64,000 bases of DNA from an uncultured Acidimicrobiales bacterium (GTDB taxonomy: Bacteria > Actinomycetota > Acidimicrobiia > Acidimicrobiales > UBA8190). The first letter of the stretch is position 1. The number at the start of each line of letters is the position of its first letter. A program made the translations under genes and the position numbers. The DNA is taken from assembly GCA_963838775.1 (NCBI GenBank), contig CAWISP010000034.1, positions 13,689 through 77,688 of the forward strand, written 5' to 3'. The notes under the pieces are model-generated. The model worked only from the letters and a program-made list of their open reading frames with translations. It did not search any database and had not been told where the DNA came from. Below, one piece after another: positions 22,140 through 56,983 of the stretch.

Positions 22140-23048
22140 ATGACGCCGACCGACGAGAGGATGACTCCCGCCATGCGCCCCAAAGCCCCAGACACCTTGA
22201 TCCCACGCGCCCCGGGACCGGCGGCTCCGGGCAGACATCTTCGCCGTCGCATGGTCCGGGCCGGGCTCGCCACGCTGGTGATCGCCGTCGTCACCACGCT
22301 GTCGCCAGCGGGATACGCGGCGGGTGCCACCGTCGAGGTCACGACCAGTGCCAACTTCGGCCCGGTGCTCACCGACGCCCAGGGCTTCGCGTTGTACACC
22401 TTCCCGAGCGACCACAACGGCATGAGCGCGTGCACGGGCGCGTGCGTGTCGGTCTGGCCGGCGCTCACCGTCCCCGCCGGGACCACGCCCACCGCCGGGA
22501 CCGGGGTCCCGGGCACGGTGGCGTCGGTGCTGCAAGCCAACGGCACGTACCAGGTCACCTACGACGGCGCGCCGCTGTACACCTTCGTGGGCGACACGAA
22601 TCCGGGTGAGGTGACGGGGAACAACGTGGGCGGGTTCACCGTCGTCCAGGTCGCGGCCGCGCCCTCCACACCCACCACGTCGGCTCCCGCCCCCACCGCG
22701 GGATCGACCTCGCCCTCGACACCGACGACGACGGCGCCGGCGTCGACCACGCCGACGACACCGGCCCCGGCACAAGCGGCCCCTCCTGCCCGGGCGGCGG
22801 CCCCCGCCACCGCCGCCGGCTCGGGCACCTCGCCCTCACCGGTACCAGCTGCCGCGGCCGGGACCAACGCCCCCACCTCCCTGGCCTTCACCGGCCCCGG
22901 GCCCGCGCTGCGGTGGATGGTGCTGGCCGGCGCCATCCTGGTGGTCACCAGCCTCGCGATGTTGTCGGTGCTCGGGGACCGCAACCGACTTCCCCATGTC
23001 ATGCTCCGCCGAGCGCGGCGCGCCGGCGGCTGGCTCCTCGGCCGCTGA
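22140..23048 (+). CDS. Secreted COG4315/Lipoprotein_15-repeat protein with LAFTG sorting signal
   Basis: Two copies of the 'LYTF..D..G.S.C.G.C...WP' type repeat (GFALYTFPSDHNGMSACTGACVSVWPAL; GAPLYTFVGDTNPG). Pro/Thr/Ala stalk, LAFTG at 22881-22895, hydrophobic helix, Arg-rich tail. The true start may be an internal Met. Confidence 0.75.
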   Translation: MTPTDERMTPAMRPKAPDTLIPRAPGPAAPGRHLRRRMVRAGLATLVIAVVTTLSPAGYAAGATVEVTTSANFGPVLTDAQGFALYTFPSDHNGMSACTGACVSVWPALTVPAGTTPTAGTGVPGTVASVLQANGTYQVTYDGAPLYTFVGDTNPGEVTGNNVGGFTVVQVAAAPSTPTTSAPAPTAGSTSPSTPTTTAPASTTPTTPAPAQAAPPARAAAPATAAGSGTSPSPVPAAAAGTNAPTSLAFTGPGPALRWMVLAGAILVVTSLAMLSVLGDRNRLPHVMLRRARRAGGWLLGR

Positions 23049-29112: not shown

Positions 29113-30174
29113 TCAGCCCCGGTTGCGACCCTGAGGCTCCCAACCGTCGAACCACAGTCCTGGCGATCCTCCAGCCTTCGGATAGGCGGGCTTGGCACTG
29201 GGCGGCTCGGACCACACGCTCGGCGCCGGCGTCGCTTCCAGGGCTTCCGCCACCGATGCCGTGGCCGGCATCGGGGTCGGTGCCAACCGCAGCACCCGCC
29301 GCAGCAGGCTGCGTGGCCGCTCGACCAGGGCCAGCACCACCGAGCCCAGGTACAGGACGATGAACCCGATCACGGCCACGAGCCACAGGTGGGGCCCGGG
29401 GCCCGTCGAGGCCAGAGCCGAGGTGGCCGGGGCCGCCGTGGTCGCCGTCGGGGCGGCCGTGGTGGCCGTCGGGGCGGCCGTGGTGGCCGTCGGGGCGGCC
29501 GTGGTGGTCGGGGCGGCGCCCGATGTGGTGGAGGCGATCACCGGTGACGCCTTGGCGGCCGTCGGCGCATTGGCGACGATGCCCGTGGTGGCGCTGTTGT
29601 TCGGGTACGGCGTGCACGTCAGGGCGAGTGTGCTGCCCGACACGTTGAGGGACAGTCCCACGGCCGGGTCGACGGTCAGGCTGATGGCGCCGCCCGAAGC
29701 CGTGAACGGGCCCACCGTGCCGGGCGTCGACGGCAGGACCAGGGACAGGCCCGTGGCCGGGACCGGGCTCGGGATGGGCGCCGCGATCGTGATCGGGGCA
29801 GCGGCCACGCTCGCCGGCGTGGCGCCGGTAGCGTCGACCTTCAGGGTGGCCATACCCGCGATCGAGGAGTTCCCCAGGGCGGCGGCGGCACCCACGATGG
29901 AAGCCGGCAGCGCCACCGTCGACTGGTAGTTGGTGAGATTGAACTGCGCCCCCGACGCCGGCGCGGCGGGCGTGATCGTCCCCGTCGTCACGACGTTGTT
30001 GAGCACGATGTTGCCGACGGGCGTTCCCGGGCAGTAGAGCTCGTAGGCAGACGAGTCGGCGAACGCCGACGGCGCCGAGGCGGCGAACAACGCGAACACG
30101 CCGACGCTTCCCCCTACCAGTCCGACCATGACGGCCGCGACAGCGCGTCCTCTGCGGCTCGACCTTGCCATCAT
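29113..30174 (-). CDS. Surface protein with one copy of the two-cysteine module of the 50159-53749 protein, plus a LASTG sorting signal and a long tail
   Basis: GGGGGGA SD then ATG-ATG at 30174. Signal peptide ...SAPSAFA/DSS. Module YELYCPGTPVGNIVLNNV...LTCTPYPNN...PVIAS. (PTATTAA)n stalk, LASTG at 29401-29415, TM helix, then about 70 further residues. Confidence 0.8.
   Translation of the reverse strand: MMARSSRRGRAVAAVMVGLVGGSVGVFALFAASAPSAFADSSAYELYCPGTPVGNIVLNNVVTTGTITPAAPASGAQFNLTNYQSTVALPASIVGAAAALGNSSIAGMATLKVDATGATPASVAAAPITIAAPIPSPVPATGLSLVLPSTPGTVGPFTASGGAISLTVDPAVGLSLNVSGSTLALTCTPYPNNSATTGIVANAPTAAKASPVIASTTSGAAPTTTAAPTATTAAPTATTAAPTATTAAPATSALASTGPGPHLWLVAVIGFIVLYLGSVVLALVERPRSLLRRVLRLAPTPMPATASVAEALEATPAPSVWSEPPSAKPAYPKAGGSPGLWFDGWEPQGRNRG
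29431..29511. repeat. In-frame 21-bp tandem repeat (about 3.9 copies) encoding (PTATTAA)n in the stalk of the surface protein
   Basis: GGCGGCCGTGGTGGCCGTCGG repeats almost perfectly on the plus strand. Translation on the minus strand is AAPTATTAAPTATTAAPTATTAAP. Confidence 0.85.
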
Positions 30175-30411
30175 TCCCCCCCTATTCGGCGGCATCTTCG
30201 ACTTCATCAGTGCCACGACCTCCCCGGTCACCCGAGCCGGCTGCGATGGCCCCGCTCGAATGGCCCCTGACGGGCACCATGACGCGCGAGGGCGTTCGCC
30301 TGCAACACCTCTTACGCACGTTACGGAACGCCGCCCGCCTCGGCATCATCACGATTGACGATTTCCTGTCGCCCAGTTTCGCCGCTCTGACCTGGGAGAA
30401 CGTCTGCAGGG

Positions 30412-43214: not shown

Positions 43215-43954
43215 GCGGCGATCGCCTCCTCGACGGTCATGGCCCCTTCGGCCAGCGCGGTCCCGACGATGGCACCGACCAGCCGTCGGTGTCGGTGCTC
43301 CGTCCCCGCCGTCGCCTCGAGCCCGGACAAGGCGGCGAGGTCCGACGTCGACCGCACCCCTCCTGACGCCACCACAGGATGATCCGTCAGCTTGAGCACG
43401 GCGAGCAGTCCCACGAGATCGGGGCCGCCGAGCATGCCGTCTCGGTCGATGGCGGTGACCACCACCGCGCCCAGGTCCACCGGCGCCAGCCGGCTCAGGG
43501 CGGCATCGAGCGTGGTGCCGGTCGAGTGTTCCCAGCCCCGCACCGCCAACTCCGCTCCCGCCGCCCGGTGGTCGAGGCCCACCGCCACCCGCCCCGGGTA
43601 ACGCGCCGCCAGCGACTCGACGAGCTCGGGCGTCTCGAGGGCGGCGGTGCCGAGCACCACCCGGTGCACGCCGTGGTCGAGCAGAGCGGCGGCATCCGCC
43701 GACCTGCGCACGCCCCCGCCTGCCTGCACCGCGACATCGACGGTCGTGGCGATCTCGAGCACCACGTCCCGGTTGACGGGCTCGCCCGTCCGGGCCGCGT
43801 CGAGGTCAACGACGTGGATCCACGACGCGCCGCCGGCCGCGTACGAGCGCGCCAGCGCCACCGGGTCCCCGTACTCGCGCACGCGACCGAAGTCGCCTTG
43901 GACGAGCCGCACCGCCCCGCCGTCGTGGAGGTCGATGGCCGGGTAGAGCTCCAT
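43196..43954 (-). CDS. hisA: ProFAR isomerase (HisA; PriA-type dual specificity cannot be judged)
   Basis: [22 protein letters not shown]..., VQAGGGVR and [11 protein letters not shown] motifs. ATG 43954 was chosen. Confidence 0.9.
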
Positions 43955-43962
43955 GACACCCG

Positions 43963-44601
43963 TCACGGGCGGGCGAGCCCGTTTCCACACACGGCCACGA
44001 AATTGGCGAGGATGGAGAGCCCTACCGAGCCCGACTTCTCGGGGTGGAACTGCGCGCCCCACACCGACCCGCGCTCGGCGGCGGCGACGACCTCGCCGCC
44101 GTAGTCACACGTCGCCACGGTGTCGCCCGACATCTCCGGCGCATAGGAATGGACGAAGTACACCCACGCCATCGGGGCGATCCCCGCCAGGAGCCGACTG
44201 TCGGCGCCGGGTCGCGTCACCACCTGGTTCCACTGCATCTGGGGACGCTTGACGCCCTCGGGAAGGGATCGCACCGTGCCACCGAGGACGCCGAGACCGG
44301 GCACCGCCGGGGACTCCTCGGATCCTTCGTAGAGCAACTGGAACCCGATGCAGATGCCGAGGAACGGCACCCCCCGCTCGAGGGCGTCGTCGACAGCCGT
44401 GTCAAGGCCGGTGGCGCGCAACGCCTGCGCGCACCGTCCGAATGCCCCCACACCGGGAAGCACCACTCCCGAGGCGCCCGCGGCGTCGTCTGGATCGGTG
44501 ACGAGCCGGGCGTCCGCCCCGAGATGCACGAACGCCTTCTGGGCCGAGGCGAGGTTGCCGATGCCGTAGTCGAGGACGGCGATTCCTCCGTCCATCGTCA
44601 T
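43963..44601 (-). CDS. hisH: Imidazole glycerol phosphate synthase glutamine amidotransferase subunit
   Basis: IAVLDYGIGNLASAQKA, GVGAFG, catalytic GICIGFQLL, and FVHSY...AAQFHPEKS motifs. ATGA overlap with hisB. Confidence 0.92.
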   Translation of the reverse strand: MTMDGGIAVLDYGIGNLASAQKAFVHLGADARLVTDPDDAAGASGVVLPGVGAFGRCAQALRATGLDTAVDDALERGVPFLGICIGFQLLYEGSEESPAVPGLGVLGGTVRSLPEGVKRPQMQWNQVVTRPGADSRLLAGIAPMAWVYFVHSYAPEMSGDTVATCDYGGEVVAAAERGSVWGAQFHPEKSGSVGLSILANFVAVCGNGLARP

Positions 44602-45218
44602 GCCCCGTCGGTGCTTCCCAACGTGCCCTTGGTGGAGGGCACGCCCCCGCCTTCCACCCGCATGGCGTCGCGCAGGCATCGTGCCGTCGCCTTGAACGAT
44701 GCCTCCACGATGTGGTGCGTGTTCTTGCCTGTCAACAGGCGCACGTGCATCGTCATGCCCGACGCCGTGACGAAGGCGCGCCAGAATTCCTCGGCCAGCT
44801 GCGGGTCGAACGGGGGTGAGCCCAGGGGCGTGACGTCGGGGCCGAACGCCACGTCATAGGCGAGGTAGGGGCGACCCGAGATGTCGAGGGCCACCTCCAC
44901 CAACGCCTCGTCGAGCGGCAGCGCGATGGACGCGAAGCGGCGGATGCCCGCCTTGTCACCGAGGGCCTGGGCCAGGGTTTCGCCGAGCACGATGCCCACG
45001 TCCTCCACGGTGTGATGGGCGTCGACGTGGAGGTCACCGGTGGCTTTGACCGTCAGGTCCAACCCCCCATGACGACCGAGTTGGGAGATCATGTGGTCGA
45101 AGAAGGGAAGCCCGGTCTCGACCTGGACCGATCCCGCGCCGTCGAGGTCGAGCTCGACGTCGATGGCCGTCTCTTTCGTCCTGCGTTGGCGCGCCGCGGC
45201 GCGAGGACCCGGACTCAT
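44598..45218 (-). CDS. hisB: Imidazoleglycerol-phosphate dehydratase
   Basis: RRTKETAIDVELDLDG, DAHHTVEDVGI and GKNTHHIVEASFKA motifs. Confidence 0.93.
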   Translation of the reverse strand: MSPGPRAAARQRRTKETAIDVELDLDGAGSVQVETGLPFFDHMISQLGRHGGLDLTVKATGDLHVDAHHTVEDVGIVLGETLAQALGDKAGIRRFASIALPLDEALVEVALDISGRPYLAYDVAFGPDVTPLGSPPFDPQLAEEFWRAFVTASGMTMHVRLLTGKNTHHIVEASFKATARCLRDAMRVEGGGVPSTKGTLGSTDGA

Positions 45219-45351
45219 TTGTCGGGCTCGGCCGGGGCGGGCCCGGTGCGGTTGTCGGAGTTGTCGGCGTGCGTCATGGAATCGCCCAGGTTACGCGCTG
45301 GGCCGGCCGTGACTGACGCTCGGCGCCACGGGGCCGTGCCCGTCGGGTGCA

Positions 45352-46434
45352 TCAGCCCGTCGACAGGCTCGAGCGCAGCGCGGCCAGGAACCGGTCGTTC
45401 TCCTCGGGCGTTCCCACCGTCACGCGCAGGCAGTTGTCGAGCCCCGGCCAGCTCGAACAGTCGCGCACCAGGACCGACGCGCCGAGGAGGTCCTGCCATA
45501 CGGCGGTGGCGGCCCGGGTCGTGGGGCGGAACAGGATGAAGTTGGCATCCGATGGCCACGACTCGACGGCCAGGTCATTGAGGGCGGCGGCGACACGACC
45601 GCGCTCCTCGGTGATCAGCGCCACGCGCGCCTCCATGGCATCGACGTGCCGTAGGGCGAGGCGACCCGCTGCTTGGGTCATGGCATCGAGGTGGTACGGA
45701 AGGACGACGGCTTCGCACGCGGCCACCACCGTCGGATCGCCGACGAGGTACCCGAGTCGACAGGCGGCCATGGACCACGTCTTGGAGAAGGTGCGCACCA
45801 CCACCAGCCGCTCCGCGCCGCTGGCACCGCTCTCCATGAGATCGAGCGCGCTCCACGGCGCGAACTGCCCATAGGCCTCGTCCACCACGACGAGGCCCGG
45901 GGCGCGCTCGAGGACGCGCGCCACGACCTCGGGTGGCTCGGCTCTCCCCGTGGGATTGTTGGGTGAGCACAGGAACGTGATCACGGGTTGGAACTCGTCG
46001 AGGACGTCGTCGAGCACGTCCAGGTCCATTTGGTGATCGGGACCACGCCAACCGCGCACCACCTCCGTGGCCGTGATCGAGGCGATGTGGCTGTGCAGCG
46101 CGTACGTGGGCTCGAACACCGCCACGACGCGACCGGGGCCCCCATAGGCCAGGAGCAGGCACTGCAGGACCTCGTTGGAGCCGTTGGCACAGAACACACG
46201 GACCGGGTCGACCCCGTGGAACCGGCCCAGGGCGTGGCGCAACTCGGTGGCGTCGCGGTCGGGATAGCGGTTGAAGTCGATCCGGCCGAGCTCGTCGCGC
46301 AGCTCGTCGAGCCACGCCGGCGGCGGTGGCAACGGGGACTCGTTCGTGTTGAGGCGCACCTCGACGTGGACCTGCGGGGAGTGGTAGCCCGACAACAGTG
46401 TCAGGTCCGGCCGCAGCGGTATCGGGCCCGTCAT
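45352..46434 (-). CDS. hisC: Histidinol-phosphate aminotransferase
   Basis: RLNTNESP, NGSNE, CSPNNPTG and TFSKTWSMAACRLGY (PLP lysine) motifs. ATGA overlap with the hisD stop. The upstream part of track ORF 45352-47301 is spurious. Confidence 0.92.
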   Translation of the reverse strand: MTGPIPLRPDLTLLSGYHSPQVHVEVRLNTNESPLPPPPAWLDELRDELGRIDFNRYPDRDATELRHALGRFHGVDPVRVFCANGSNEVLQCLLLAYGGPGRVVAVFEPTYALHSHIASITATEVVRGWRGPDHQMDLDVLDDVLDEFQPVITFLCSPNNPTGRAEPPEVVARVLERAPGLVVVDEAYGQFAPWSALDLMESGASGAERLVVVRTFSKTWSMAACRLGYLVGDPTVVAACEAVVLPYHLDAMTQAAGRLALRHVDAMEARVALITEERGRVAAALNDLAVESWPSDANFILFRPTTRAATAVWQDLLGASVLVRDCSSWPGLDNCLRVTVGTPEENDRFLAALRSSLSTG

Positions 46435-47729
46435 GGCGATTCGCCCCGCACGACGACGGATCGGGCGTGGGCGGGGAGCCCCTCGGCCGCGGCGATGGCG
46501 GCCACGTGCGGTGCCAGTCGGGCCAGGGCTGCGGCGTCCATCGACACGGCGTGGATGTGGGTGCGGAAGTCGTCGACGCGCAGCGCCGACGCGAAACGCG
46601 CCGTGCGAGCGGTGGGCAGGACGTGGTTCGGGCCGGCCACGTAGTCGCCCACACTGGCCGGGGCATACGGGCCCAGGAACACAGCCCCCGCGCACCGGAC
46701 GAGGGGCAGGAGCGCCACCGCGTCCGCCACGAGCAGTTCCAGATGTTCGGGCGCCACCAGGTTGGCGACGGCCACGGCCTGGTCCGGGCCGTCCACGAGC
46801 ACGACGTACCCGCCCGTCCCCAGTGTCGCTTCGAGATCCTGACGCCGGGGCGAGGCCGCCACCAACCGATCGACCTCGGCCTCGATGGCGTCGGCCGCTT
46901 CGGCCGACCACGTGACCAACCAGGCCAGGCCGTCGGGGCCGTGCTCGGCCTGGACCACGACGTCGATCGCGGCCCACGCCACCGGCGTGTCGCCGTCGGC
47001 GACCACGACCACCTCCGAAGGTCCCGCGAACGCGGACGGGACACCCACCATCCCCGACACCTGGCGCTTGGCCTCGGCCACGTAGCGGTTGCCGGGTCCG
47101 GCGATGACGTCGACGGGTCGGATCGACGGCGTGCCGAACGCCATCGCGGCGACGGCCTGAGCTCCTCCCACCCGATAGACCTCGTCGATCCCGGCGATGG
47201 CGGCGGCCGCCAAGGTCTCGGACGCGATGGCGCCGTCGGGCCCGGGCGGGACGCACAACGCGAGCTCGGACACGCCCGCCACCCGGGCCGGGGCCGCGCA
47301 CATGAGCACGGTCGAGGGATAGCGCGCCCGGCCCCCCGGGGCGTACAGCCCGGCGCGCCCCACCGGTCGCAGCAGGTGCCGGACCACCACCCCGTCGTTC
47401 ACGAAGTCGGAGATCGGCTCCGGCTCGTGGCCGTGATAGGCGAGGATGCGGTTGTACGCGACCTCCAGCGCAACGCGCAGCCGGGGGTCGATCCCGGCCA
47501 AGGCGGCGTCGAGGTCCTCGCCGGGCACCCGCAGGGCGCCGACCTCGACACCGTCGAACCGCCGCGTCAGGGCCCGCAGCGCCTCGTCGCCCCCGATCCG
47601 CACCTCGTCGAGGATGGCTCGCACCGACTCACTGGGAAACGTCTGCTCGGCGGGCGGGCGCGGCAGCGCCTCAGCCAGCTCGTCGGCGGGCACACCACGC
47701 AGGTCGAGGCGCTTCATGGGCACGGTCAC
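46431..47729 (-). CDS. hisD: Histidinol dehydrogenase
   Basis: 432 aa with the YPSTVLM, GPGNRYVAEAK and QAEHGPD motifs. Confidence 0.93.
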   Translation of the reverse strand: MTVPMKRLDLRGVPADELAEALPRPPAEQTFPSESVRAILDEVRIGGDEALRALTRRFDGVEVGALRVPGEDLDAALAGIDPRLRVALEVAYNRILAYHGHEPEPISDFVNDGVVVRHLLRPVGRAGLYAPGGRARYPSTVLMCAAPARVAGVSELALCVPPGPDGAIASETLAAAAIAGIDEVYRVGGAQAVAAMAFGTPSIRPVDVIAGPGNRYVAEAKRQVSGMVGVPSAFAGPSEVVVVADGDTPVAWAAIDVVVQAEHGPDGLAWLVTWSAEAADAIEAEVDRLVAASPRRQDLEATLGTGGYVVLVDGPDQAVAVANLVAPEHLELLVADAVALLPLVRCAGAVFLGPYAPASVGDYVAGPNHVLPTARTARFASALRVDDFRTHIHAVSMDAAALARLAPHVAAIAAAEGLPAHARSVVVRGESP

Positions 47730-47862
47730 GCGATCGTACTCGGGGCACCTGCGCCCTCCGGTCCTGGTGAGAGGCTTGGAATCCCTCGAAGCGGACCATC
47801 CGGCGCGGTGAGGCCGGCGTCCCGGCTTCGCATCGCCCTCGGGGATCGGTCATCATCAGGGC

Positions 47863-48063
47863 GTGTCCGCCCCCCTCGCCGAGCTGTCTTCGGTGGCAAC
47901 CGCCCTGGAGGAGTTGCGCCAGCGTGTCGCCGCCATCGCGGACCAGGCTGCCTCGGAGAGCGATGACGACACCGCGTCCGAGCTCTACGCCGTGGAGCGG
48001 GCCCTCACCGGCGCGGGACGACGCCTCAGTCGACTCACCTCCGCCCCCGTGCGGCGCCGGTAA
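47863..48063 (+). CDS. Hypothetical small helical protein (66 aa)
   Basis: GTG start, high GC3, and a non-repetitive helical sequence (LAELSSVATALEELRQRVAAIADQAAS...). No recognisable family. Confidence 0.45.
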   Translation: MSAPLAELSSVATALEELRQRVAAIADQAASESDDDTASELYAVERALTGAGRRLSRLTSAPVRRR

Positions 48064-48289
48064 CGGGCAGCCGAAACGCCAGGCGCCAGGCGAATAGCGC
48101 TGACGGCGCCCTTGCGGGCGCCGTCGCGCGAGCGGGCCGGACGGCGGATGCCGACCGCACTCATCGGAACCGAGTGGCGGGAACCGGTTCCGTCTTCACT
48201 ACAACACCACGCGACGCCTCTGCCTTCCATGAACGGGCACAAAACTTCGTCCCAAATCGGTCGGCTCACCGGCCCGGCACCGCTCGACC

Positions 48290-49003
48290 TCACGCGGTGG
48301 TGACGGGCGGTACCAGCGGAGCGGTGTCAGCGGGTCGGTGTGACCGGAACGGGATCAGCGACGAGGGGCAGATGTCGGCGAGGACGCACTCGCCGCACAG
48401 CGGGGTACGGGCCCGACACGTCTTGCGGCCGTGGAGGATGAGACGCAGGCTCAGCGCCCCCCATTCCTCGGGAGGGACCAGCGCACCGACCTCGGCTTCG
48501 ACTTTGACCGGATCGGTCTGCGCCGTGAGGCCCAAACGCCGGGTGAGACGCCCCACATGGGTGTCGACGGGCAGCCCCGGCAGGTCCATGGCCACACTGC
48601 GCACCACGTTGGCGGTCTTGCGGCCCACCCCGGGCAGGCTCGTGAGGTCCTCCATCGACGACGGCACCTCACCGCCGAAGCGCTCGGTCACGCCCCGGGC
48701 CATCCCCACGAGGTTCTTTGCCTTCGAGCGGAAGAACCCCGTTGACCGCACCCGCTCCTCGAGGTCCTCGATCGGCGCGGCGGCGAGAGCCTCGGCTGTC
48801 GGGTACGCCTCGAACAGACCGGGCGTCACCATGTTGACCCGCTCGTCGGTGCACTGGGCCGAGAGGATCGTCGCCACGAGAAGCTGGAAGGCGCCGTCGT
48901 GACGGAGCGCGCACAACTGGGCGGCGCTACCCGGGTACAGGTTTGCGAGACGCTTCACGACCTCGGCCGCCCGGGCGCGTAGGGAACGGGGACGGGCCAC
49001 CAC
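48290..49003 (-). CDS. nth: Endonuclease III (DNA glycosylase/AP lyase)
   Basis: HhH-GPD region (LVATILSAQCTDERVN, LPGVGRKTANVV, VDTHV) and the 4Fe-4S loop CRARTPLCGECVLADIC. A GTG near 49003 was chosen as the start. Confidence 0.9.
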   Translation of the reverse strand: MVARPRSLRARAAEVVKRLANLYPGSAAQLCALRHDGAFQLLVATILSAQCTDERVNMVTPGLFEAYPTAEALAAAPIEDLEERVRSTGFFRSKAKNLVGMARGVTERFGGEVPSSMEDLTSLPGVGRKTANVVRSVAMDLPGLPVDTHVGRLTRRLGLTAQTDPVKVEAEVGALVPPEEWGALSLRLILHGRKTCRARTPLCGECVLADICPSSLIPFRSHRPADTAPLVPPVTTA

Positions 49004-49074
49004 GTCACAGTACCGAGACCACTGACCGGGCCGGGCAGTCGGGGTCGGCAAGCGACGTTCGGTAGCCTTCGACG

Positions 49075-49989
49075 GTGCATCCCATCGAGGTGAAGCGCCG
49101 CATGGGCGAGTCCGACATCGCCGAGGTGTCTCAGCTTCTGCAGCAGGCACTGGTCGCCGACGGCCACTATCCGCTCGGTGAGCACAAGTGGTTGGACCTG
49201 GTGCACGGGGGTCGCACGGGTTTCGCCGGCTTCGTCGCCCGGGAACCGTCCAACGGCCCTCTGGTCGGCTATGCACAACTCAGCCGCGGTCACGGCACCT
49301 GGGGTGTCGAGGTGGTGGTCCGCCCCGACCATCGCAAGCCCGATGCCGAGGTCGGCATCAGTCTCCTGACCGCCGCGTTGCGCGAGGTGGCCAGAGAGGG
49401 CGGAGGGCACGTGCATCTGTGGGTTCCGAAACCCACCACCCTCACCGACGCCATGGCCGAGACCTGTGGCCTCCGACGCGGCCGGGACCTCTATCAGATG
49501 CGCCGACCGCTCCCGCTCGACGACGAGCATCCCCGCATCCCCGTCCGCCCCTTTCGACCCGGCGAGGACGAGGAGGCGTGGCTGGCGGTCAACAACCGCG
49601 CCTTCGCCTCTCATCCCGAACAGGGGGGTTGGAGTCTCGACACGATCCGCGAGCGCGAAGCCGAATCGTGGTTCGACCCCGAGGGGTTTCTCCTCCACGA
49701 GCGCGACGGACGTCTGGCTGCCTCGTGCTGGACGAAGGTGCACCATGACACCGAGCCCCCACTGGGAGAGATCTACGTGATCTCGGTGGACCCGGACTTC
49801 CAGGGCCTGGGGCTCGGACGCGACCTGGTCCTCGCCGGCCTCGACTACCTCTCGGCGCGGGGCATCACGGTGGGCATGCTCTACGTCGACGCCGACAACA
49901 CCCCCGCCGTCGGCCTCTACCGCAAGCTCGGCTTCGAGGTCGACCACACCGATCGCGCCTACGTCACCGACGTGCCCGCATCGGCCTGA
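49075..49989 (+). CDS. mshD: Mycothiol synthase (tandem GNAT acetyltransferase)
   Basis: Two GNAT halves. The C-terminal half has EIYVISVDPDFQGLGLGRDLV...GMLYVDADNTPAVGLYRKLGF. Length and layout match MshD. Confidence 0.8.
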   Translation: MHPIEVKRRMGESDIAEVSQLLQQALVADGHYPLGEHKWLDLVHGGRTGFAGFVAREPSNGPLVGYAQLSRGHGTWGVEVVVRPDHRKPDAEVGISLLTAALREVAREGGGHVHLWVPKPTTLTDAMAETCGLRRGRDLYQMRRPLPLDDEHPRIPVRPFRPGEDEEAWLAVNNRAFASHPEQGGWSLDTIREREAESWFDPEGFLLHERDGRLAASCWTKVHHDTEPPLGEIYVISVDPDFQGLGLGRDLVLAGLDYLSARGITVGMLYVDADNTPAVGLYRKLGFEVDHTDRAYVTDVPASA

Positions 49990-50009: not shown

Positions 50010-50158
50010 TGACGTTGCCGTCCCCGCCCAGTCACTCTGCGCAGTTCATCAATCTTGGGGATGCATGTGGGAAACGCAACTGGTGCCATGAAGGGGCACA
50101 CTCGCCCGTCGCCGACTGAGGGGCCGGATCTCCCAGCTGGCGGGCAGAGGGGGTCACC

Positions 50159-53100
50159 GTGGGACGCTTTCAGCACCTCGCCACCCGACTGAGCATCGTT
50201 GGCGCGCTCGCACTCGTCATCGGAACCTCATTGGTGGCTGGCGTCATAACGCAGGCCCTCACAAGCTCCGCCTTTGCCGACACCGCGCCCTACGAGACCT
50301 TCTGCGCCAATACGCCAGCGGGAAACATCGTGCTCAACGATGTCGTCGTCAGCGGTGCGCTGTCTCCCTCCAATCCCACGACGGGTCAGCAATTCAACGT
50401 GACCGGGCTCGAGGTCAAAGAACAACTGCCCGCCGCCGTCGTGCAGGATGCCGCCGCCACCGGTCTCACCTCCCTTACCGGCACGCTGACGACTTCCGTG
50501 GACGCCACCGGAGCGACGCCGCCGTCGATCTCGACCGGGGCAATGTCCTTCGACATCCCCATCCCGAATCCCGTGCCGGCGTCGGGCATCACCCTGCAAG
50601 TCCCGTCGACGCCGGCCACCGTCGGACCCTTCACGGCCACGAGCAGCAACATCACCGTGAGTGAAGCGGCTGTCGCGAACACCACCGACATCGACGGTGA
50701 CGGCATCGGCCTCATTGCGCTCGACTGTTCTTCCTACCCGAACGACACCCTGCCGTCCGGATTCACCAGCAACTCCCCGCCGGGGCTCCCCATATCCCCT
50801 GTCATCGCTACCGCCGGCCAGGGGACCCCTCCCCCTGCTCCCCCGACGCTGACCGGGCCCTACGAGCTGTACTGCCCCCACACCCCGGTGGGCGACCTCG
50901 TGCTCAATGACGTCGTCACCTCCGCCTCGATCTCGCCGAGCAGCCTCTCGGCCGGCGAACAATTCGACGTGGCGGGATACCAGACCCACATCCCACTCCC
51001 CGCCGGCTTGGTCTCTGCCGCGGCCGGGTTGGGCAACAGCAGCTTCGACGGGTTGGCCGCCAGTGCCGTCGACGCCTACGGCGCCACGCCGTCACAGGCA
51101 TCGACGGGGTCGATGAGCTTCGACGTGCCCATCCCGGCCACGGTGCCGAGCTCGGGCCTCGGCGTCGACTTCCCGACGTCCGCCACCACGGTCGGGCCCT
51201 TCACCGCCTCGGGCGGGCCCGTCACCATCGCCGAGGACCAGTCCACGATGGTGGTGGCGGCCTTGTCGAGCAAGGCGTTCACGATGTCGTGCACCGCGTA
51301 CCCCAACGACGACGTCGCCACCTCGGGATCGACGGGCACCGCCCCCACCGGGGTTCCCATCCGGCCCATCATCGCCACCGCCTCGGCGTCGGGATCCACG
51401 CCTACGACGACCACGGCGCCACCGACGACGGTCCCCCCGACGTCGCCCACCGGCCCCTACGAGCTGTACTGCCCGAATACTCCCGTGGGCAACATCGTCC
51501 TCAACGACACGACGACCTCGGCCACGATCACACCTTCCACGCTGGCCCAGAACCAGCAATTCCAGCTGGCCGACCTCCAGACCCAGTTCTCGATCCCCCA
51601 GAGTGTCGTCGAACAGGCCGAAGGCCTCGGGCTCACCCAGATCTCCGGGCACATGTCGATGTTCGTCGACGCCACGGGCGTGTCCCAATTCGATGAACCC
51701 GGTCCCGTCGAAGTCGTCGGGTCGTCACCCAGTACGTCGTTGACGGACCTCCCCCCCACCCCCACGACCACGTCGGTCACCGTGGAGCCGACCTCCCCCG
51801 GGGTGCCGTTCCCCGAACCGTTCCAACCCTACCCGTCGTTCTTCGACCTCCCCTTCAACGTGACGCTGCCCAACCCCGTGCCCGCCACCGGGGTCCAGTT
51901 CGACGCGACCGTTCCCTCCGGCGAGCTGGTGGGATCCTTCACGGCGGCGGGGGGCCCCATCGCCTTCGGCATCAACGCCGTCAACCTCAACGTGACCGAG
52001 TTCGGCGACAACTTCGGGCTCTTCTGCACGCCGTTCGCCAATGACACCGAGCCCACTGGCCTCACGACCACGGTGCCGAGCGGATCGATCATCGAGCCGG
52101 TCATGGCCACCGGCACCGCCACCATCACCCCGCCACCTCCCATCGGCCCGGGGGGCGAGGGACCGTACGAGCTGTACTGTCCGAACACACCGGTCGGAAA
52201 CGTCGTGCTCAACGAGGTCACGACCACGGCGACCCTGTCACCACCCGATCCGTCCCCCGGTGACCAGTTCAGCGTGACGAACTATCAGACCCAGGTTCCC
52301 CTGCCCGCCTCCATCGCCGCGGCCGCCGCCGCCCTCGGGAACCCGTCGCTCCCCGGCAACGTCACGGCCACGATCGACGCCGCGGGCGCCACCCCGGCGT
52401 CGATCCCGACGGGCCCGATGAGCTTCGACGTCGCCCTCCCGACCCCCATGCCGGCCTCTGGCGTCACGATCGTGGTGCCGTCGGCTCCCAGCACGATCGG
52501 CCCCTTCACCGCCACCAGCAACGCCATCACCATCGCCCAGAACGCGGCGGTCAACCTCATCCTCGAGGTGTCGGGCAGCGATCTGGCGCTGAACTGCACC
52601 GCCTATCCCGACGACAGTGCGCCGACCGGCATCACCGAATTCCCGCCCGACGCCTCGCCCGTCTCCCCCGTCATCGTCACCGCAGGCCCGGTGACCACGA
52701 CGACCACGACGACCACGACACCCCCCCCGACGGTGCCACCCGGACAGACGACGGGCGCCTACGAGCTGTACTGCCCCGGCACGCCGGTCGGCAACATCGT
52801 CCTCAACAACGTGACCACCACGGCGTCGATCCCGAGCAGCCTGACGGTGGGACAACAGTTCGAGGCCACCAACTTCCAGACGAACCTCAACCTACCGTCG
52901 TCGATCGTCTCCGCGGCCGCCGCCCTCGGCAACTCAGCGATCGAGGGTGACGCGGTGGTCAAGGTCGATGCCACCGGTGCCGACCCGGCGACGGTGTCGT
53001 CGGGTGCGCTCGACATCAATGCTCCTATCCCGAGCCCGGTGCCTCGTTCGGGCCTGGCGCTGGCGGTGCCTTCGCCTCCGGGAAGCGTCGGCCCCTTCAC

Positions 53101-53749
53101 CGCCACAGGCGGCGCGGTCACGCTTACCGTGGACCCGGACGTCTCGTTAACCCTGACGGTGTCGGGCAGCTCGCTGAACCTCACGTGCAAGCCCTACCCG
53201 AACAACACCGATTCCACCGGCATCGTGGCGAACCCGCCCAATGGCTCGGCGGTGGCGCCCGTCATCGCCACCGGCTCGACCGGGACCACGCCCCCGACGC
53301 CGACAACGGTCACGGCATCGCCGACGACGGCTCCGGCCGAGACCGGCCCCACCGAGACCACCGTGCCCGACACGGGCACAGCACCGACCACGACACAGGC
53401 GGTCACGGGTCCCGTCGCCGTCACCGACGCCCCGACGACGACCGCCCCGGCGCCGGGATCGACGACAACGGCGACACCGGCGTCGTCGATCACCGCCTCG
53501 ACAGCCACCGCGGCCGGGTCTTCGCACGGGGACACCGCCGATCAGACCACGGCACCCGGCCCCGTCGTGGCGGCGAGCTCAGGGGCCCTCGCCTTCACCG
53601 GTGTGGGGGTGATCGCGCAGTGGCTGGCCGTGGTGGGCGGCGCCCTCATGGTGCTCGGCTTCGCCCTCCTCATCATGGTGGACACCCCGCGCCGGATCAT
53701 GTTCCGGTTGGCCCGGCACAACGCGTCCTGGCGGCGTTGGCCACGTTGA
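50159..53749 (+). CDS. Giant wall-anchored surface protein: signal peptide, five two-cysteine repeat modules, Thr/Pro stalk, LAFTG sorting signal
   Basis: Single 1,196-aa ORF. AGAGGGGG SD then GTG. Signal ...LTSSAFA/DTAP. Modules start at 50291, 50861, 51458, 52166 and 52760. LAFTG at 53588-53602, then a TM helix and a basic tail. Confidence 0.85.
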   Translation: MGRFQHLATRLSIVGALALVIGTSLVAGVITQALTSSAFADTAPYETFCANTPAGNIVLNDVVVSGALSPSNPTTGQQFNVTGLEVKEQLPAAVVQDAAATGLTSLTGTLTTSVDATGATPPSISTGAMSFDIPIPNPVPASGITLQVPSTPATVGPFTATSSNITVSEAAVANTTDIDGDGIGLIALDCSSYPNDTLPSGFTSNSPPGLPISPVIATAGQGTPPPAPPTLTGPYELYCPHTPVGDLVLNDVVTSASISPSSLSAGEQFDVAGYQTHIPLPAGLVSAAAGLGNSSFDGLAASAVDAYGATPSQASTGSMSFDVPIPATVPSSGLGVDFPTSATTVGPFTASGGPVTIAEDQSTMVVAALSSKAFTMSCTAYPNDDVATSGSTGTAPTGVPIRPIIATASASGSTPTTTTAPPTTVPPTSPTGPYELYCPNTPVGNIVLNDTTTSATITPSTLAQNQQFQLADLQTQFSIPQSVVEQAEGLGLTQISGHMSMFVDATGVSQFDEPGPVEVVGSSPSTSLTDLPPTPTTTSVTVEPTSPGVPFPEPFQPYPSFFDLPFNVTLPNPVPATGVQFDATVPSGELVGSFTAAGGPIAFGINAVNLNVTEFGDNFGLFCTPFANDTEPTGLTTTVPSGSIIEPVMATGTATITPPPPIGPGGEGPYELYCPNTPVGNVVLNEVTTTATLSPPDPSPGDQFSVTNYQTQVPLPASIAAAAAALGNPSLPGNVTATIDAAGATPASIPTGPMSFDVALPTPMPASGVTIVVPSAPSTIGPFTATSNAITIAQNAAVNLILEVSGSDLALNCTAYPDDSAPTGITEFPPDASPVSPVIVTAGPVTTTTTTTTTPPPTVPPGQTTGAYELYCPGTPVGNIVLNNVTTTASIPSSLTVGQQFEATNFQTNLNLPSSIVSAAAALGNSAIEGDAVVKVDATGADPATVSSGALDINAPIPSPVPRSGLALAVPSPPGSVGPFTATGGAVTLTVDPDVSLTLTVSGSSLNLTCKPYPNNTDSTGIVANPPNGSAVAPVIATGSTGTTPPTPTTVTASPTTAPAETGPTETTVPDTGTAPTTTQAVTGPVAVTDAPTTTAPAPGSTTTATPASSITASTATAAGSSHGDTADQTTAPGPVVAASSGALAFTGVGVIAQWLAVVGGALMVLGFALLIMVDTPRRIMFRLARHNASWRRWPR
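50291..53280 (+). repeat. Five tandem coding repeats (570-708 nt each) inside the giant surface-protein gene
   Basis: Modules 2-5 each start with TACGAGCTGTACTGYCC (YELYCP). Blocks FD[IV]PIPxPVPxSG, TVGPFTA, CxxYPN and PVIAT recur at matching positions. Confidence 0.85.
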
Positions 53750-53820: not shown

Positions 53821-54627
53821 CTAGTGCGCGGTGCTGATGCCGACGAGGGCGCCGACCCCGAAGGTCACGGCGGCAGGTAACGCCGTCATCAGGAGCTGGC
53901 GAGTCGACGACCGCCACCAGCTCCGGCGAGTGAACACCGCCAAGGCGGCTCCTACGCCGAGCGCGGCGAGCACGCTCAGCACGACCGATGCCACTACCGC
54001 AGCGGTCCCCCTGGCGATGAACCACGGGATGAGAGGGATCAGCGCGCCCACACCGAAGGTGACGAACGACGACACCGCGGCCTGCAGGGGACGACCGAGC
54101 GCGGCGGGATTGATGCCGAGCTCCTCACGGGCGTGAGTCTCGAGCGCCAACTCAGGCGTCCGCATCATCTCGTCGGCGAGGGTGCGAGCGACGGTCGGGT
54201 CCACGCCACGCTTCTCGTAGATGCCGACGAGCTCACGCCGCTCGCCTTCGGGTCGGTGGCTGATCTCGTGCTTCTCCATGGCCAGCTCGCGCTCGAGGAG
54301 CTCGCGCTGAGCCGACATGGAGGTCCACTCGCCCGACGCCATCGAGAACGCCCCCGCGATCGTTAGCGAGATCCCGGCCAGGCGCACCACACTCGGGCCG
54401 GCGTTGGCGCCGGCGAACCCCAGGATCAGCGAAACGTTGGTGACCAGGCCGTCCGCCACCCCGAACACGGCGGCGCGGGCCCCTCCGCCTTGGACGTTGC
54501 GGTGATGGTGGTCCCACAGGTGGGCCTCACCGGTGCCTCGCCGGCTGGGGTGGGCGTCTGACGCCCGGCGGCCGAACAATCGGGCCGCCCGGCTCCGGGT
54601 CTCGAGCCCACCGGTCGCCTTCACCAC
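53821..54627 (-). CDS. VIT1/CCC1-family (Fe/Mn) transporter
   Basis: VFGVADGLVTNVSLILG, GAFSMASGEWTS, a central cytoplasmic helical region (ELAMEKHEISHRPEGERRELVGIYEKRGV) and C-terminal TM helices. GTG 54627 was chosen so as not to overlap the divergent gene. Confidence 0.75.
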   Translation of the reverse strand: MVKATGGLETRSRAARLFGRRASDAHPSRRGTGEAHLWDHHHRNVQGGGARAAVFGVADGLVTNVSLILGFAGANAGPSVVRLAGISLTIAGAFSMASGEWTSMSAQRELLERELAMEKHEISHRPEGERRELVGIYEKRGVDPTVARTLADEMMRTPELALETHAREELGINPAALGRPLQAAVSSFVTFGVGALIPLIPWFIARGTAAVVASVVLSVLAALGVGAALAVFTRRSWWRSSTRQLLMTALPAAVTFGVGALVGISTAH

Positions 54628-54678
54628 CGCGAGACTACCGACCGCCCCGGGGTCAAGCGGCCACCCGGACCTGCAAGA

Positions 54679-55050
54679 ATGACTCACATGGCCGAGCCCC
54701 GACGCTGGTTCGACCCGTCGCAACCCCAGACCCTGCAGGGTGCGGTGATGCTCAGCTATCTGATCGCTGCCTTCAGCCTGCTGTGGCTCCTGTTCGGGGC
54801 GTACCCGTCGGTGATCTCTCTGGGCTTGGGTGCGGCCGGCTACGGCATCGCCAACGAGAAACGGTGGGGTTACCGCCTCGGTCTCGTGTTGGCCGGACTC
54901 AGCGTCCTCTTGTTCCTGTCGGTGTTTGCCGACGTCGGGCTCGCGTCCGGTTTCAGGCTCGTGGGCATCAACCTCGTCTTCACCCTCGTCCTCGTCGCCC
55001 TCTATCTCCATCCCCAGAGCCGCGAGTACCAGCGCGTCTGGTTCAAGTGA
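54679..55050 (+). CDS. Hypothetical small membrane protein (3-4 TM helices)
   Basis: 123 aa, strongly hydrophobic segments, high GC3. Its position is incompatible with the long antisense track ORF 53821-55095. Confidence 0.65.
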   Translation: MTHMAEPRRWFDPSQPQTLQGAVMLSYLIAAFSLLWLLFGAYPSVISLGLGAAGYGIANEKRWGYRLGLVLAGLSVLLFLSVFADVGLASGFRLVGINLVFTLVLVALYLHPQSREYQRVWFK

Positions 55051-55106
55051 CGCGAGCCGGGCGCAGCGCCCGGCGAGCCACAGGGCGGCGCGCATAGTCT
55101 CGGGCC

Positions 55107-55565
55107 ATGACGACCACCGTTTCGAGCATCGACGAGCTCAGCAAGCTCACCGGCCAACACCTCGGGTACTCCGGCTGGCACGTGATCGACCAGGCGCAGA
55201 TCAACCTCTTCGCCGACGCCACCGGCGACCACCAGTGGATCCACGTCGATCCCGAGCGGGCCGCGTCGGGGCCCTTCGGCACCACCATCGCCCACGGTTA
55301 CCTCACCCTGTCGATCATCCCGTCGATCCTGCACGAGGTGATCCGGGTCGAGGGCTTCAAGTTCGGCGTGAACTACGGCGCCAACAAGGTCAGGTTCCCG
55401 TCCCCGGTCAAGGTGGGGTCGAAGCTCCGCCTGGGAGCGGCCGTGTCGTCGGTGGAGAACGTCGGCCCCGACGCCGCCCAGGCCGTGCTCGACATCACCA
55501 TCGAGACCGAGGGCTCGGACAAGCCATCGTGTGTAGCCCAGGTGGTCTACCGCTACTCCTGGTGA
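55107..55565 (+). CDS. MaoC-like (R)-specific enoyl-CoA hydratase / hot-dog fold dehydratase
   Basis: LFADATGDHQWIHVDPERA...GTTIAHGY motif of the MaoC dehydratase family. 152 aa. Confidence 0.85.
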   Translation: MTTTVSSIDELSKLTGQHLGYSGWHVIDQAQINLFADATGDHQWIHVDPERAASGPFGTTIAHGYLTLSIIPSILHEVIRVEGFKFGVNYGANKVRFPSPVKVGSKLRLGAAVSSVENVGPDAAQAVLDITIETEGSDKPSCVAQVVYRYSW

Positions 55566-55642
55566 TCCCACGGCGTTCGGTCGCCGTCACCGGCGCCCAC
55601 CGGTCGCCCTGGCGCCAGGATCGCCCGCCTCACAACCCCGCT

Positions 55643-55705
55643 TCTCAGAGCCCATTTCTCAGAGCCCATTTCACAGAGCCCATTTCACAGAGCCCATCAC
55701 AGAGG
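55643..55705. repeat. 14-bp tandem repeat (about 4.5 copies) in a convergent intergenic region, running into the acyl-CoA dehydrogenase stop codon
   Basis: TCTCAGAGCCCATT / TCTCAGAGCCCATT / TCACAGAGCCCATT / TCACAGAGCCCAT / CACAGAGGG. The region is locally much less GC-rich than its surroundings. Confidence 0.85.
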
Positions 55706-56923
55706 GAGATCGCCCGTCGCGGCCCGCGTGGTGCCGTGTTCGTTGTAGGCGGCGATGACCGCTTCGGCCACGCGCCATTTGTGGATCTCGTCGGCGCCGT
55801 CGGCGAACCGGCTCCAGCGCGCCTGGAGGAGCATGTCCGACAGGGGCGAGTCCTTGGAGTAGCCGAGGGCGCCGTGGACCTGCACCGCCCGGTCCACCAC
55901 GCGCCACAGCGTGTTCGCCACGTGGTGCTTGGCCATCGACACCTCGGTGGTGAAAGGCAGCCTGTGCTCGATCCGGTAGGCGGCGTGCAGGACCATCAAC
56001 TTGGCCTGGTAGAGCTCGATCGCCGACTCGCTCACCAACCACTGGATGCCCTGCTTCTCCGACAGGAACGACCCGTGCGAATAGCGCTGGGTGGCCCTCG
56101 CCACCATGAGGTCGAGGGCGGTCTCGATCTGCCCGATCCAGCGCATGCAATGGGCGAGGCGCGCCGGTCCCAGGCGGTACTGCCCCAGTCGGTGGCCCTG
56201 GCCCCGGTCGCCCAGCCGGTTGGCGTCGGGCACCCGGAGGCCGTCGATCCTGATCTCACAGTGGTTGTGGCTCCCCGCCATCGTCTCCACGTCGCGCACG
56301 ATCTCCCAACCCGCCGACGGCACATCCACGATGAAGGCCGTGGTTGCCGCCTGCGGAACCTCGGGGTCGTCCTCGGTGCGGGCGAGCAGGATGGCGAAGC
56401 GCGCCCCGTGCGCGCCGCTGATGAACCATTTGTGCCCGTTGATCACCCACTCGTCGCCATCGGGCACGGCCCGGGTGCGCATGAGGGTCGGGTCCGAGCC
56501 CGCCACCTCCGGCTCGGTCATGGCGAAGCACGACCGCACCGTCCCTTCGCACATGGGCGCGAGGTACCGCTCCTTCTGGTCGTCGGTGCCCCAGTGCAAC
56601 AGGGTGTGCATGTTGCCCTCGTCGGGCGCGTAGCAGTTGACAACGTACGACGCCCAACGCGCCTTGGACGACTCGGCGGACACCGCCGCCAACGCCGTCG
56701 GGCCGAGGCCTGCCCCACCCCATTCCTTGGGCATGTGCGGCATCCACAGGTCGAGCTCACGGGCCCGGGCCCGGAGACGGTCGAGCTCGGCCCGCCAGTC
56801 GCCGCGACCCGAGCTCTCCTCGCTCAGGCGCTGCTCGGTGGGACGCACCTCTTCGTCGACGAAGGCCTGCATGCGCAGGCGGGCTTCTTCGACATCGGGC
56901 TCGAAGGTGAAGTCGATGGCCAT
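55697..56923 (-). CDS. Acyl-CoA dehydrogenase
   Basis: FAMTEPEVAGSDP, the GDEWVINGHKWFISGA motif and a C-terminal helical domain. ATG 56923 (MAIDFTFEPDVEE...) was chosen. Confidence 0.88.
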   Translation of the reverse strand: MAIDFTFEPDVEEARLRMQAFVDEEVRPTEQRLSEESSGRGDWRAELDRLRARARELDLWMPHMPKEWGGAGLGPTALAAVSAESSKARWASYVVNCYAPDEGNMHTLLHWGTDDQKERYLAPMCEGTVRSCFAMTEPEVAGSDPTLMRTRAVPDGDEWVINGHKWFISGAHGARFAILLARTEDDPEVPQAATTAFIVDVPSAGWEIVRDVETMAGSHNHCEIRIDGLRVPDANRLGDRGQGHRLGQYRLGPARLAHCMRWIGQIETALDLMVARATQRYSHGSFLSEKQGIQWLVSESAIELYQAKLMVLHAAYRIEHRLPFTTEVSMAKHHVANTLWRVVDRAVQVHGALGYSKDSPLSDMLLQARWSRFADGADEIHKWRVAEAVIAAYNEHGTTRAATGDLPL

Positions 56924-56983
56924 CGGCGCAGTCTTCCACCCCGGGACAGCCTCATCTCGCAACGACCACGGCATCCGTGACGT

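Follow-up and report, generated by a model that had tools for sequence, protein, structure and literature searches.

Five two-cysteine DUF6801-type modules in a predicted sortase-anchored surface protein of an uncultured Acidimicrobiales bacterium

We find that a 64,000-nucleotide stretch of DNA from an uncultured soil Acidimicrobiales bacterium (GenBank assembly GCA_963838775.1, contig CAWISP010000034.1, positions 13,689 to 77,688; the whole stretch is called the window below) carries the gene of a 1,196-residue protein made of a signal peptide, five modules of ~175-180 amino acids (aa), a Thr/Pro/Ala stalk, the sorting motif LAFTG, a transmembrane helix and a basic tail. Each module holds one pair of cysteines that is kept almost without exception in its homologues, and by profile comparison the modules form a peripheral two-Cys subfamily of the Pfam family DUF6801. 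The reading that we favour, and judge on balance to be the likelier one, is that the protein is a substrate of a class E sortase, whose disulfide-locked β-sandwich domains make up a rod that serves as an adhesin or as an envelope fibre. Our confidence is much higher for the architecture than for this reading as a whole, and lower for the function. A first-pass annotation, made by reading the letters, had described a sortase-anchored adhesin or S-layer-like protein built from five copies of an unrecognised, disulfide-stapled, beta-rich module. Most of that description stood; the novelty of the module did not.

Gene, modules and sorting signal

The gene and the parts of its product are listed here by their positions in the window (nt, nucleotides).

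50147..50153, + strand: putative ribosome-binding site GAGGGGG, purine-rich, 5 nt upstream of the GTG, read from the sequence
50159..53749, + strand: open reading frame (ORF) of the five-module surface protein; GTG start; 1,196 aa
50159..50278, + strand: predicted Sec-type signal peptide, aa 1-40; cleavage at AFA/DTAP
50288..50815, + strand: module 1, aa 44-219; Cys49 and Cys190; DUF6801-type β-sandwich; 237 bits against the module profile
50858..51391, + strand: module 2, aa 234-411; Cys239 and Cys378; the best conserved module across orthologues
51455..52123, + strand: module 3, aa 433-655; Cys438 and Cys623; carries an insertion
51692..51835, + strand: insertion of module 3, aa 512-559; 48 aa; Pro/Thr/Ser-rich
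52163..52684, + strand: module 4, aa 669-842; Cys674 and Cys813; the module that varies most between close orthologues
52757..53281, + strand: module 5, aa 867-1041; Cys872 and Cys1010; the best DUF6801 match
53282..53587, + strand: Thr/Ala/Pro-rich stalk, aa 1042-1143; 32% Thr, 20% Ala, 15% Pro
53588..53602, + strand: LAFTG sorting motif of the class E type (LAXTG), aa 1144-1148
53603..53680, + strand: transmembrane segment of 26 hydrophobic residues, aa 1149-1174; VGVIAQWLAVVGGALMVLGFALLIMV
53681..53749, + strand: basic cytoplasmic tail and stop; DTPRRIMFRLARHNASWRRWPR; 22 aa with 6 Arg and 1 His

Translation reproduced the coordinates, the strand and the length first given for the ORF. The DNA is about 70% GC, and within the ORF the GC fractions at codon positions 1, 2 and 3 are 0.59, 0.60 and 0.88, the high third-position value being the pattern of a real gene. 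Orthologues share the N-terminus MGRF..., which places their start at that of the window protein. The ratio of nonsynonymous to synonymous substitution rates (dN/dS) of the whole gene against five orthologues is 0.23-0.33, indicating purifying selection and hence, as far as sequence comparison can tell, a gene that is expressed as protein.

Could the ORF nevertheless be a chance open frame in GC-rich DNA that is never translated? At this base composition spurious long ORFs are common, numerous antisense ORFs overlap the gene, and a scan for promoter and terminator consensus sequences returned no hits, itself a weak test in a high-GC actinobacterium. We give this explanation practically no credence. 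The third-position GC belongs to a typical coding pattern, the dN/dS shows purifying selection, 118 homologues and a conserved synteny have been found, and AlphaFold2 models the product with high confidence; the model, the synteny and the dN/dS effectively refute it. The question bore directly on the first-pass annotation, which had named an untranslated ORF as fatal to its own proposal; selection, synteny and homologues all speak against that outcome.

The signal peptide was called by inspection, from two basic residues (R3 and R10), the hydrophobic core that it has and its AxA site, and its region coincides with a helix at aa 5-35 in the AlphaFold2 model. A lipoprotein reading was ruled out, as the signal peptide contains no Cys.

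The sequence YE[LT][YF]C opens the modules at aa 45, 235, 434, 670 and 868 (nt 50291, 50861, 51458, 52166 and 52760), all in frame, so that the five module starts given by the first-pass annotation were recovered exactly. Likewise, its count of cysteines was correct: the protein has ten, two per module and none elsewhere. The longer opening motif Y-E-[LT]-[YF]-C-[PA]-x-T-P-[VA]-G-[ND]-[ILV]-V-L-N, too, is literally present in all five modules. Further blocks had been described as common to every module, and these hold as a consensus rather than as literal text. AAxLGN and VDAxGAxP are each found in three of the five modules, as is the closing motif LxCxx[YF][PA]N[DN], and the two long blocks FD[IV]PIPxPVPxSG and VPSxPxTVGPFTA occur in exact form in module 1 only; the shorter G[PS]FTA is present in all five. 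Pairwise identity among the modules is 42-51%, with 33 invariant columns, and against a profile of homologous modules they score 150-264 bits, module 3 being split by its insertion into matches of 92 and 58 bits. By these measures the repeats exceed chance by far. The insertion of module 3, estimated before at about 40 aa, is real and is present in all orthologues. Its length varies, and in nearly all relatives with at least three modules the third (the fourth in some, such as homologue P0033) exceeds the others in length. In a model of the full-length protein the insertion has predicted local distance difference test (pLDDT) values of 24-36 and is probably a disordered loop.

The stalk, the LAFTG motif, the transmembrane helix and the basic tail all lie where the first-pass annotation had placed them. 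The stalk is probably extended and wall-spanning, and may possibly be O-glycosylated. All 34 aligned orthologues keep the L, A, T and G of LAFTG, and most of the complete homologues have LA[FYAS]TG at this place. Class E sortases, which serve soil and freshwater Actinobacteria as housekeeping enzymes, recognise LAXTG (PMC5148588). NCBIfam gave a sub-threshold match only, of the model LAXTG_small_WW over the sorting signal. The tripartite signal is canonical, and it is on this sequence signal that the predicted sortase anchor rests.

Cysteine pair, predicted fold and family

A profile of the five modules retrieved 407 near-full-length module instances in 118 homologues, with one to five instances per protein. 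The first Cys is kept in 406 of these modules and the second in all 407, and 398 have exactly two cysteines; the pair is also found in distant single-domain relatives of ~210-240 aa. Loss of the Cys positions in homologues, which would have undone the disulfide-stapled module proposed in the first-pass annotation, is therefore not what we find. Conservation supports the pair directly and the bond between its members indirectly. Mean-field direct coupling analysis of 453 non-redundant modules was used to ask whether the strands that carry the two cysteines adjoin, and what it returned was mostly artefacts of gaps and conservation in the invariant N-terminal segment.

The composition of the protein bears on which cross-link chemistry its domains could use. 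The whole protein has four Lys (aa 87, 372, 935 and 1011) and six His, at positions that are not equivalent between modules. The ectodomain (aa 41-1143; 1,103 aa) is rich in Thr, Ala, Pro, Ser, Gly and Val and net acidic, with 6 Lys plus Arg against 76 Asp plus Glu. Over the 407 modules Lys plus Arg average 0.6%, compared with 7-13% in those non-surface proteins of the window that were checked. Lys-Asn isopeptide domains of the Cna-B or pilin type were ruled out, since the four Lys are inequivalent in position and Pfam gave no match; so were Thr-Gln ester bonds, which are His-assisted, given that His is scarce and not conserved in position. Pilin-type polymerisation through Lys was rejected for lack of a pilin-motif Lys, and a thioester domain (TED/CGEQ) because each module has two Cys and no Pfam match of that kind. 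The 50 best PDB matches of the module include no thioester-domain adhesin, and the matches of the full-length model to A2M and TEP1 (template-modelling (TM) score at most 0.07) reflect a generic likeness of tandem macroglobulin (MG) domains. The scarcity and inequivalent positions of Lys and His leave the invariant Cys pair as the sole candidate staple. In Actinobacteria, exported Cys pairs are oxidised by enzymes of the MdbA/DsbA type. Each domain is, in our reading of these sequences, probably locked by one disulfide that joins the N-terminal Cys to the Cys ~140 residues later.

Structure prediction bears out the beta-rich nature of the module. AlphaFold2, run on module 5 with an alignment of 65 diverse module instances (alignment A2), gave a mean pLDDT of 95.6 and a predicted TM-score of 0.88. 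The model has 11 strands and one short helix (residues 51-59); strand 1 carries the first Cys, and the strand at residues 141-151 carries the second. A full-length model, built with 34 orthologues (alignment A4), shows ordered beta domains in five places, aa 45-219, 235-411, 434-655, 670-842 and 868-1041, and low-confidence linkers at aa 415-430, 658-665 and 844-862. The stalk, at aa 1043-1154, has pLDDT below 50, and a helix at aa 1151-1189 comprises the transmembrane segment and the tail.

A Foldseek search of the PDB with the module model found one notable neighbour, 3LSO_A (E 1.7e-3, probability 1.00, query-normalised TM-score 0.55), at 14% identity and a root mean square deviation of 11.5 Å. 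This structural-genomics entry is titled 'putative membrane anchored protein from Corynebacterium diphtheriae'. The modelling and fold search proposed with the first-pass annotation yielded a single notable neighbour, and an uncharacterised one. The remaining PDB matches (transglutaminase C-terminal barrels, arrestins and similar; E above 0.03, TM-score at most 0.33) amount, at the level of the model, to a generic β-sandwich resemblance, and no viral structure in BFVD matched the module below E 0.05. As modelled, the module fold is without a characterised close relative. The full-length model matched only strings of β-sandwich domains, with whole-chain TM-scores of at most 0.11: an algal mastigoneme, the Ig-like stalk of PrgB, MG domains of TEP1 and alpha-2-macroglobulin, cohesin dyads and pilin shafts. 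The Ig-like domains of PrgB, an enterococcal adhesin, matched at E 1.3e-7. This result points to the architecture of a fibrillar surface protein, insofar as the model is a guide.

The module had been called unrecognised, and this is where the first-pass annotation has to be corrected. The whole protein matches Pfam DUF6801 (PF20611) in four stretches with 37.5 bits, where the gathering cut-off is 26, and in NCBI nr the orthologue HVA04822.1 already bears the name DUF6801 domain-containing protein. Taken by itself, module 5 reaches 40.6-41.3 bits over positions 15-133 of the 161 of the hidden Markov model (HMM), a region that leaves out both conserved cysteines. Recognition is uneven: 35 of the 65 diverse modules match DUF6801 at E ≤ 0.01, and module 1 alone has no Pfam match at E ≤ 10. 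Pfam labels DUF6801 a family of unknown function, a literature search on DUF6801, PF20611 and 3LSO returned no relevant paper, and sequence and profile searches of the PDB with the protein and with module profiles gave nothing meaningful. The profile search thus found a catalogued family, though not a characterised one, so that strictly the claim of a module outside the characterised families was not overturned. By sequence the gene is a fresh example of a catalogued family, whose orthologues already carry the DUF6801 label.

The subfamily itself is small, and among hits with a named source it is confined to one order. The 118 homologues come from a collection of 5.8 billion proteins, and every one with a named source is from an Acidimicrobiales metagenome-assembled genome (MAG). 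Searched exhaustively with a profile, 1.84 billion cluster representatives yielded only 289 proteins at E ≤ 1e-3, and a word-indexed search seeded with distant single-domain members found only proteins of Acidimicrobiales or of unnamed metagenomes. The taxonomic spread, which the first-pass annotation had proposed to map, is accordingly 100% Acidimicrobiales among the source-named hits.

The favoured reading and its rivals

In the mechanism that we propose, the protein would be exported through Sec and its signal peptide removed at AFA/DTAP, and the LAFTG motif, the transmembrane helix and the basic tail would keep the precursor in the membrane. A class E sortase, the LAXTG-specific housekeeping type, would cut between Thr1147 and Gly and link the protein to peptidoglycan. 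The stalk of ~100 residues would lead the rest of the chain through the wall, so displaying the five paralogous DUF6801-type domains as beads on a string with short Pro/Thr linkers between them. The disulfide would stabilise each domain as isopeptide and ester cross-links do in the adhesin stalks of Firmicutes, and the product would be a protease-resistant surface fibre with a part in adhesion or in building the outer envelope.

Several observations weigh against this reading. The tail carries a conserved motif, V-D/E-x-P-R(-R), in which D1175 is invariant and P1177 and R1179 are nearly invariant among the 34 orthologues; such a tail is more elaborate than a simple stop-transfer sequence and could mean retention in the membrane. 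None of the six frames of the 64-kb window contains the sortase signature TL[IVTSL]TC. 3LSO, the one notable match by structure, is uncharacterised, and Pfam and NCBIfam at E ≤ 10 gave no adhesin family, no SLH and no other anchoring family.

The tail and the lack of a sortase in the window are also what a rather different account would build on, namely a type I membrane protein that stays anchored by its transmembrane helix, with LAFTG uncleaved or partly cleaved and a tail that binds cytoplasmic partners or signals. V-D/E-x-P-R recurs in the distant homologues P0215, P0231 and P0235 and in a paralogue in the window whose tail is ~80 aa long; some homologues have long tails, at least one homologue (P0035) has DUF2510 near its C-terminus, and 3LSO bears the words 'membrane anchored' in its title. 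We nonetheless think this account unlikely. Sortase genes usually lie apart from those of their substrates, and the invariance of L, A, T and G in LAFTG, right before the transmembrane helix, is difficult to account for unless a sortase acts on it. Class E enzymes are, moreover, the housekeeping sortases of Actinobacteria (PMC5148588).

A coat or sheath of the S-layer kind has about the same low chance; here the protein, in many copies and alongside single-module paralogues, would cover the cell with a dense layer that is acidic and protease-resistant, and would not act as a specific adhesin. It would suit the acidic composition nearly free of Lys and Arg, the presence of several paralogues per genome (two genes in the window; P0038, P0084 and P0104 on one 4.0-Mb contig) and the conserved chromosomal position amid housekeeping genes. 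Neither Pfam nor NCBIfam, however, matched the protein to an S-layer family at E ≤ 10, and flexible beads on a string with disordered linkers are typical of fibrillar adhesins and not of two-dimensional lattices. Less probable still is that the modules capture a ligand, be it carbohydrate, metal or haem, in the manner of HtaA/CR domains or carbohydrate-binding modules (CBMs), and that the protein is a receptor for nutrient acquisition. Modules of this family are fused to GDSL lipase/esterase, BNR-repeat (sialidase-type) and Sortilin/Vps10-type domains, as CBM-like modules often are, and Tyr or Phe is invariant at module positions 5, 38, 117 and 150. The make-up of 11 strands and one helix also brings to mind the haem-binding CR domains of corynebacteria. 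Yet HtaA, CBM and binding families are missing from the Pfam matches at E ≤ 10, and no HtaA/CR or CBM structure is among the top 50 Foldseek matches in the PDB. The five copies, with their position-specific orthology and without a tip domain, are compatible with ligand capture and make no argument for it.

We return to the proposed disulfide-locked surface rod and to what it would mean. The family members join a strict Cys pair, a LAXTG signal and a composition nearly free of Lys and Arg, and the present work gives DUF6801 a highly confident structural model. This could guide structural-genomics and surface-proteome work and possibly offers an antigen or a handle for enrichment. Acidimicrobiales are abundant, mostly uncultured actinobacteria of soil and freshwater, and to our knowledge their cell surface is essentially unstudied. 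A bolder proposal, which we put forward as a long shot, is that the two-Cys module is an uncharacterised disulfide-locked fold class and the Acidimicrobiales-specific building block of an acidic, protease-resistant coat or fibre system. If so, the five-module protein would count among the main constituents of the envelope in a soil lineage that is widespread and uncultured, and the V-D/E-x-P-R-R motif that follows the transmembrane helix could mark a variant pathway of sorting or retention. No concept is changed by the favoured reading: tandem β-sandwich surface proteins anchored by sortase are commonplace, and a specialist would be unsurprised.

Locus, relatives and known systems

Relatives of the gene are encoded at eight loci of GTDB species representatives, all of them Acidimicrobiales MAGs from soil, permafrost and similar sources. 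The gene order hisD, endonuclease III, GNAT, [gene], VIT1, the 123-aa ORF, MaoC, acyl-CoA dehydrogenase is present as a whole in five of the loci and in part, as far as the contigs reach, in two (L001-L007). Synteny of the gene extends over six Acidimicrobiales MAG species, and the flanking order is identical in at least five species other than that of the window. Neighbouring proteins are mostly 80-96% identical between species (endonuclease III and VIT1 less so), compared with 69-81% for the surface protein.

42444-49989, upstream flank: hisF/hisA/hisH/hisB/hisD, endonuclease III and a 304-aa GNAT acetyltransferase, which we take to be MshD-like
53821-56974, downstream flank: VIT1-family transporter, a 123-aa membrane ORF without a Pfam match, MaoC dehydratase and acyl-CoA dehydrogenase

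Each module of the window protein best matches the module at the same position in orthologues; module 2, for instance, is 66-93% identical to module 2 of eight five-module relatives. Such position-specific orthology argues for an old five-module array without concerted evolution. Because each position has its own orthologue lineage, the five modules are, on this comparison, individually specialised. Module 4 stands apart. It is 58% identical to module 4 (positions 11981-12568 of locus L005) of an orthologue that is 81% identical overall, with a dN of 0.35 and a dS of 0.74, whereas the other modules have a dS of 0.23-0.43 against the same orthologue. This pattern suggests allelic replacement by recombination and not positive selection.

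The array has been extended in some relatives. Orthologues from sister species (loci L002, L004 and L006; proteins P0006-P0014) are 1,320-1,360 aa long and have one more domain, rich in Cys, that the window protein lacks. It is either neocarzinostatin-like (PF00960) or listed in precomputed annotation as PF26580, an entry that did not turn up in our local Pfam scan. More distant homologues have one or two modules fused to GDSL lipase and DUF4214, to BNR or sortilin-type repeats, or to TIG or Big domains, and neocarzinostatin-like Ig domains are also among the domain partners of the module. The variety of these fusions marks the module as a portable extracellular unit and fits either a spacer or a binding role.

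Two other proteins of the window have predicted sorting signals of the same type.

29113..30231, - strand: single-module paralogue of 372 aa; module at nt 29479-30054, 238.6 bits in a six-frame HMM scan
22140..23048, + strand: 302-aa protein with two Lipoprotein_15 (PF03640) repeats; predicted class E sortase substrate, the third in the window

The paralogue has the same SAFA/D signal junction as the main protein, a Thr/Ala/Pro stalk with AAPTATT repeats, LASTG, a transmembrane helix and a VERPR tail with about 60 further residues behind it. Of the five modules of the main protein, module 5 is the one that its own module most resembles. It has no Pfam match, so that annotation based on Pfam would miss the DUF6801 label. 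Its gene sits between a histidine kinase (27641-29095, + strand) and a regulator ORF (30468-32267, - strand), the latter presumably, from its sequence, of the diguanylate-cyclase/phosphodiesterase type. The third protein has a Thr/Pro/Ala stalk, LAFTG at nt 22881, a transmembrane helix and a basic tail.

How does the five-module protein compare with known systems? With DUF6801 it shares a score above the cut-off, and it differs in covering the HMM partially, in having its cysteines outside the match and in the uneven recognition of its modules. With 3LSO it shares a likeness of fold and the status of an actinobacterial envelope protein; at 14% identity this neighbour is undetectable by sequence-profile search and allows no transfer of function. 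Class E substrates of Actinobacteria such as the chaplins ChpA-C of Streptomyces also come from a soil actinobacterial lineage; they, too, start with a signal peptide and end in LAXTG, a hydrophobic stretch and a basic tail (PMC5148588). Chaplins are small, amyloid-forming, hydrophobic proteins and as passengers unrelated to the modules described here, and the window protein differs further in its longer tail with a conserved motif and in that its sortase was not found within the 64-kb window. In overall architecture the protein is like the fibrillar adhesins of Gram-positive bacteria, such as PrgB and those with Cna-B, SdrD-B or Thr-Gln ester domains. The window protein belongs to none of these by sequence or by close fold (no Pfam match; whole-chain TM-score at most 0.11) and has no distinct N-terminal ligand-binding tip domain, and its staple would be a disulfide instead of a Lys-Asn isopeptide or Thr-Gln ester bond. 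What it has in common with them is the wall anchor, the low-complexity region that spans the wall, the rod of β-sandwich domains and, as predicted here, an internal staple in each domain.

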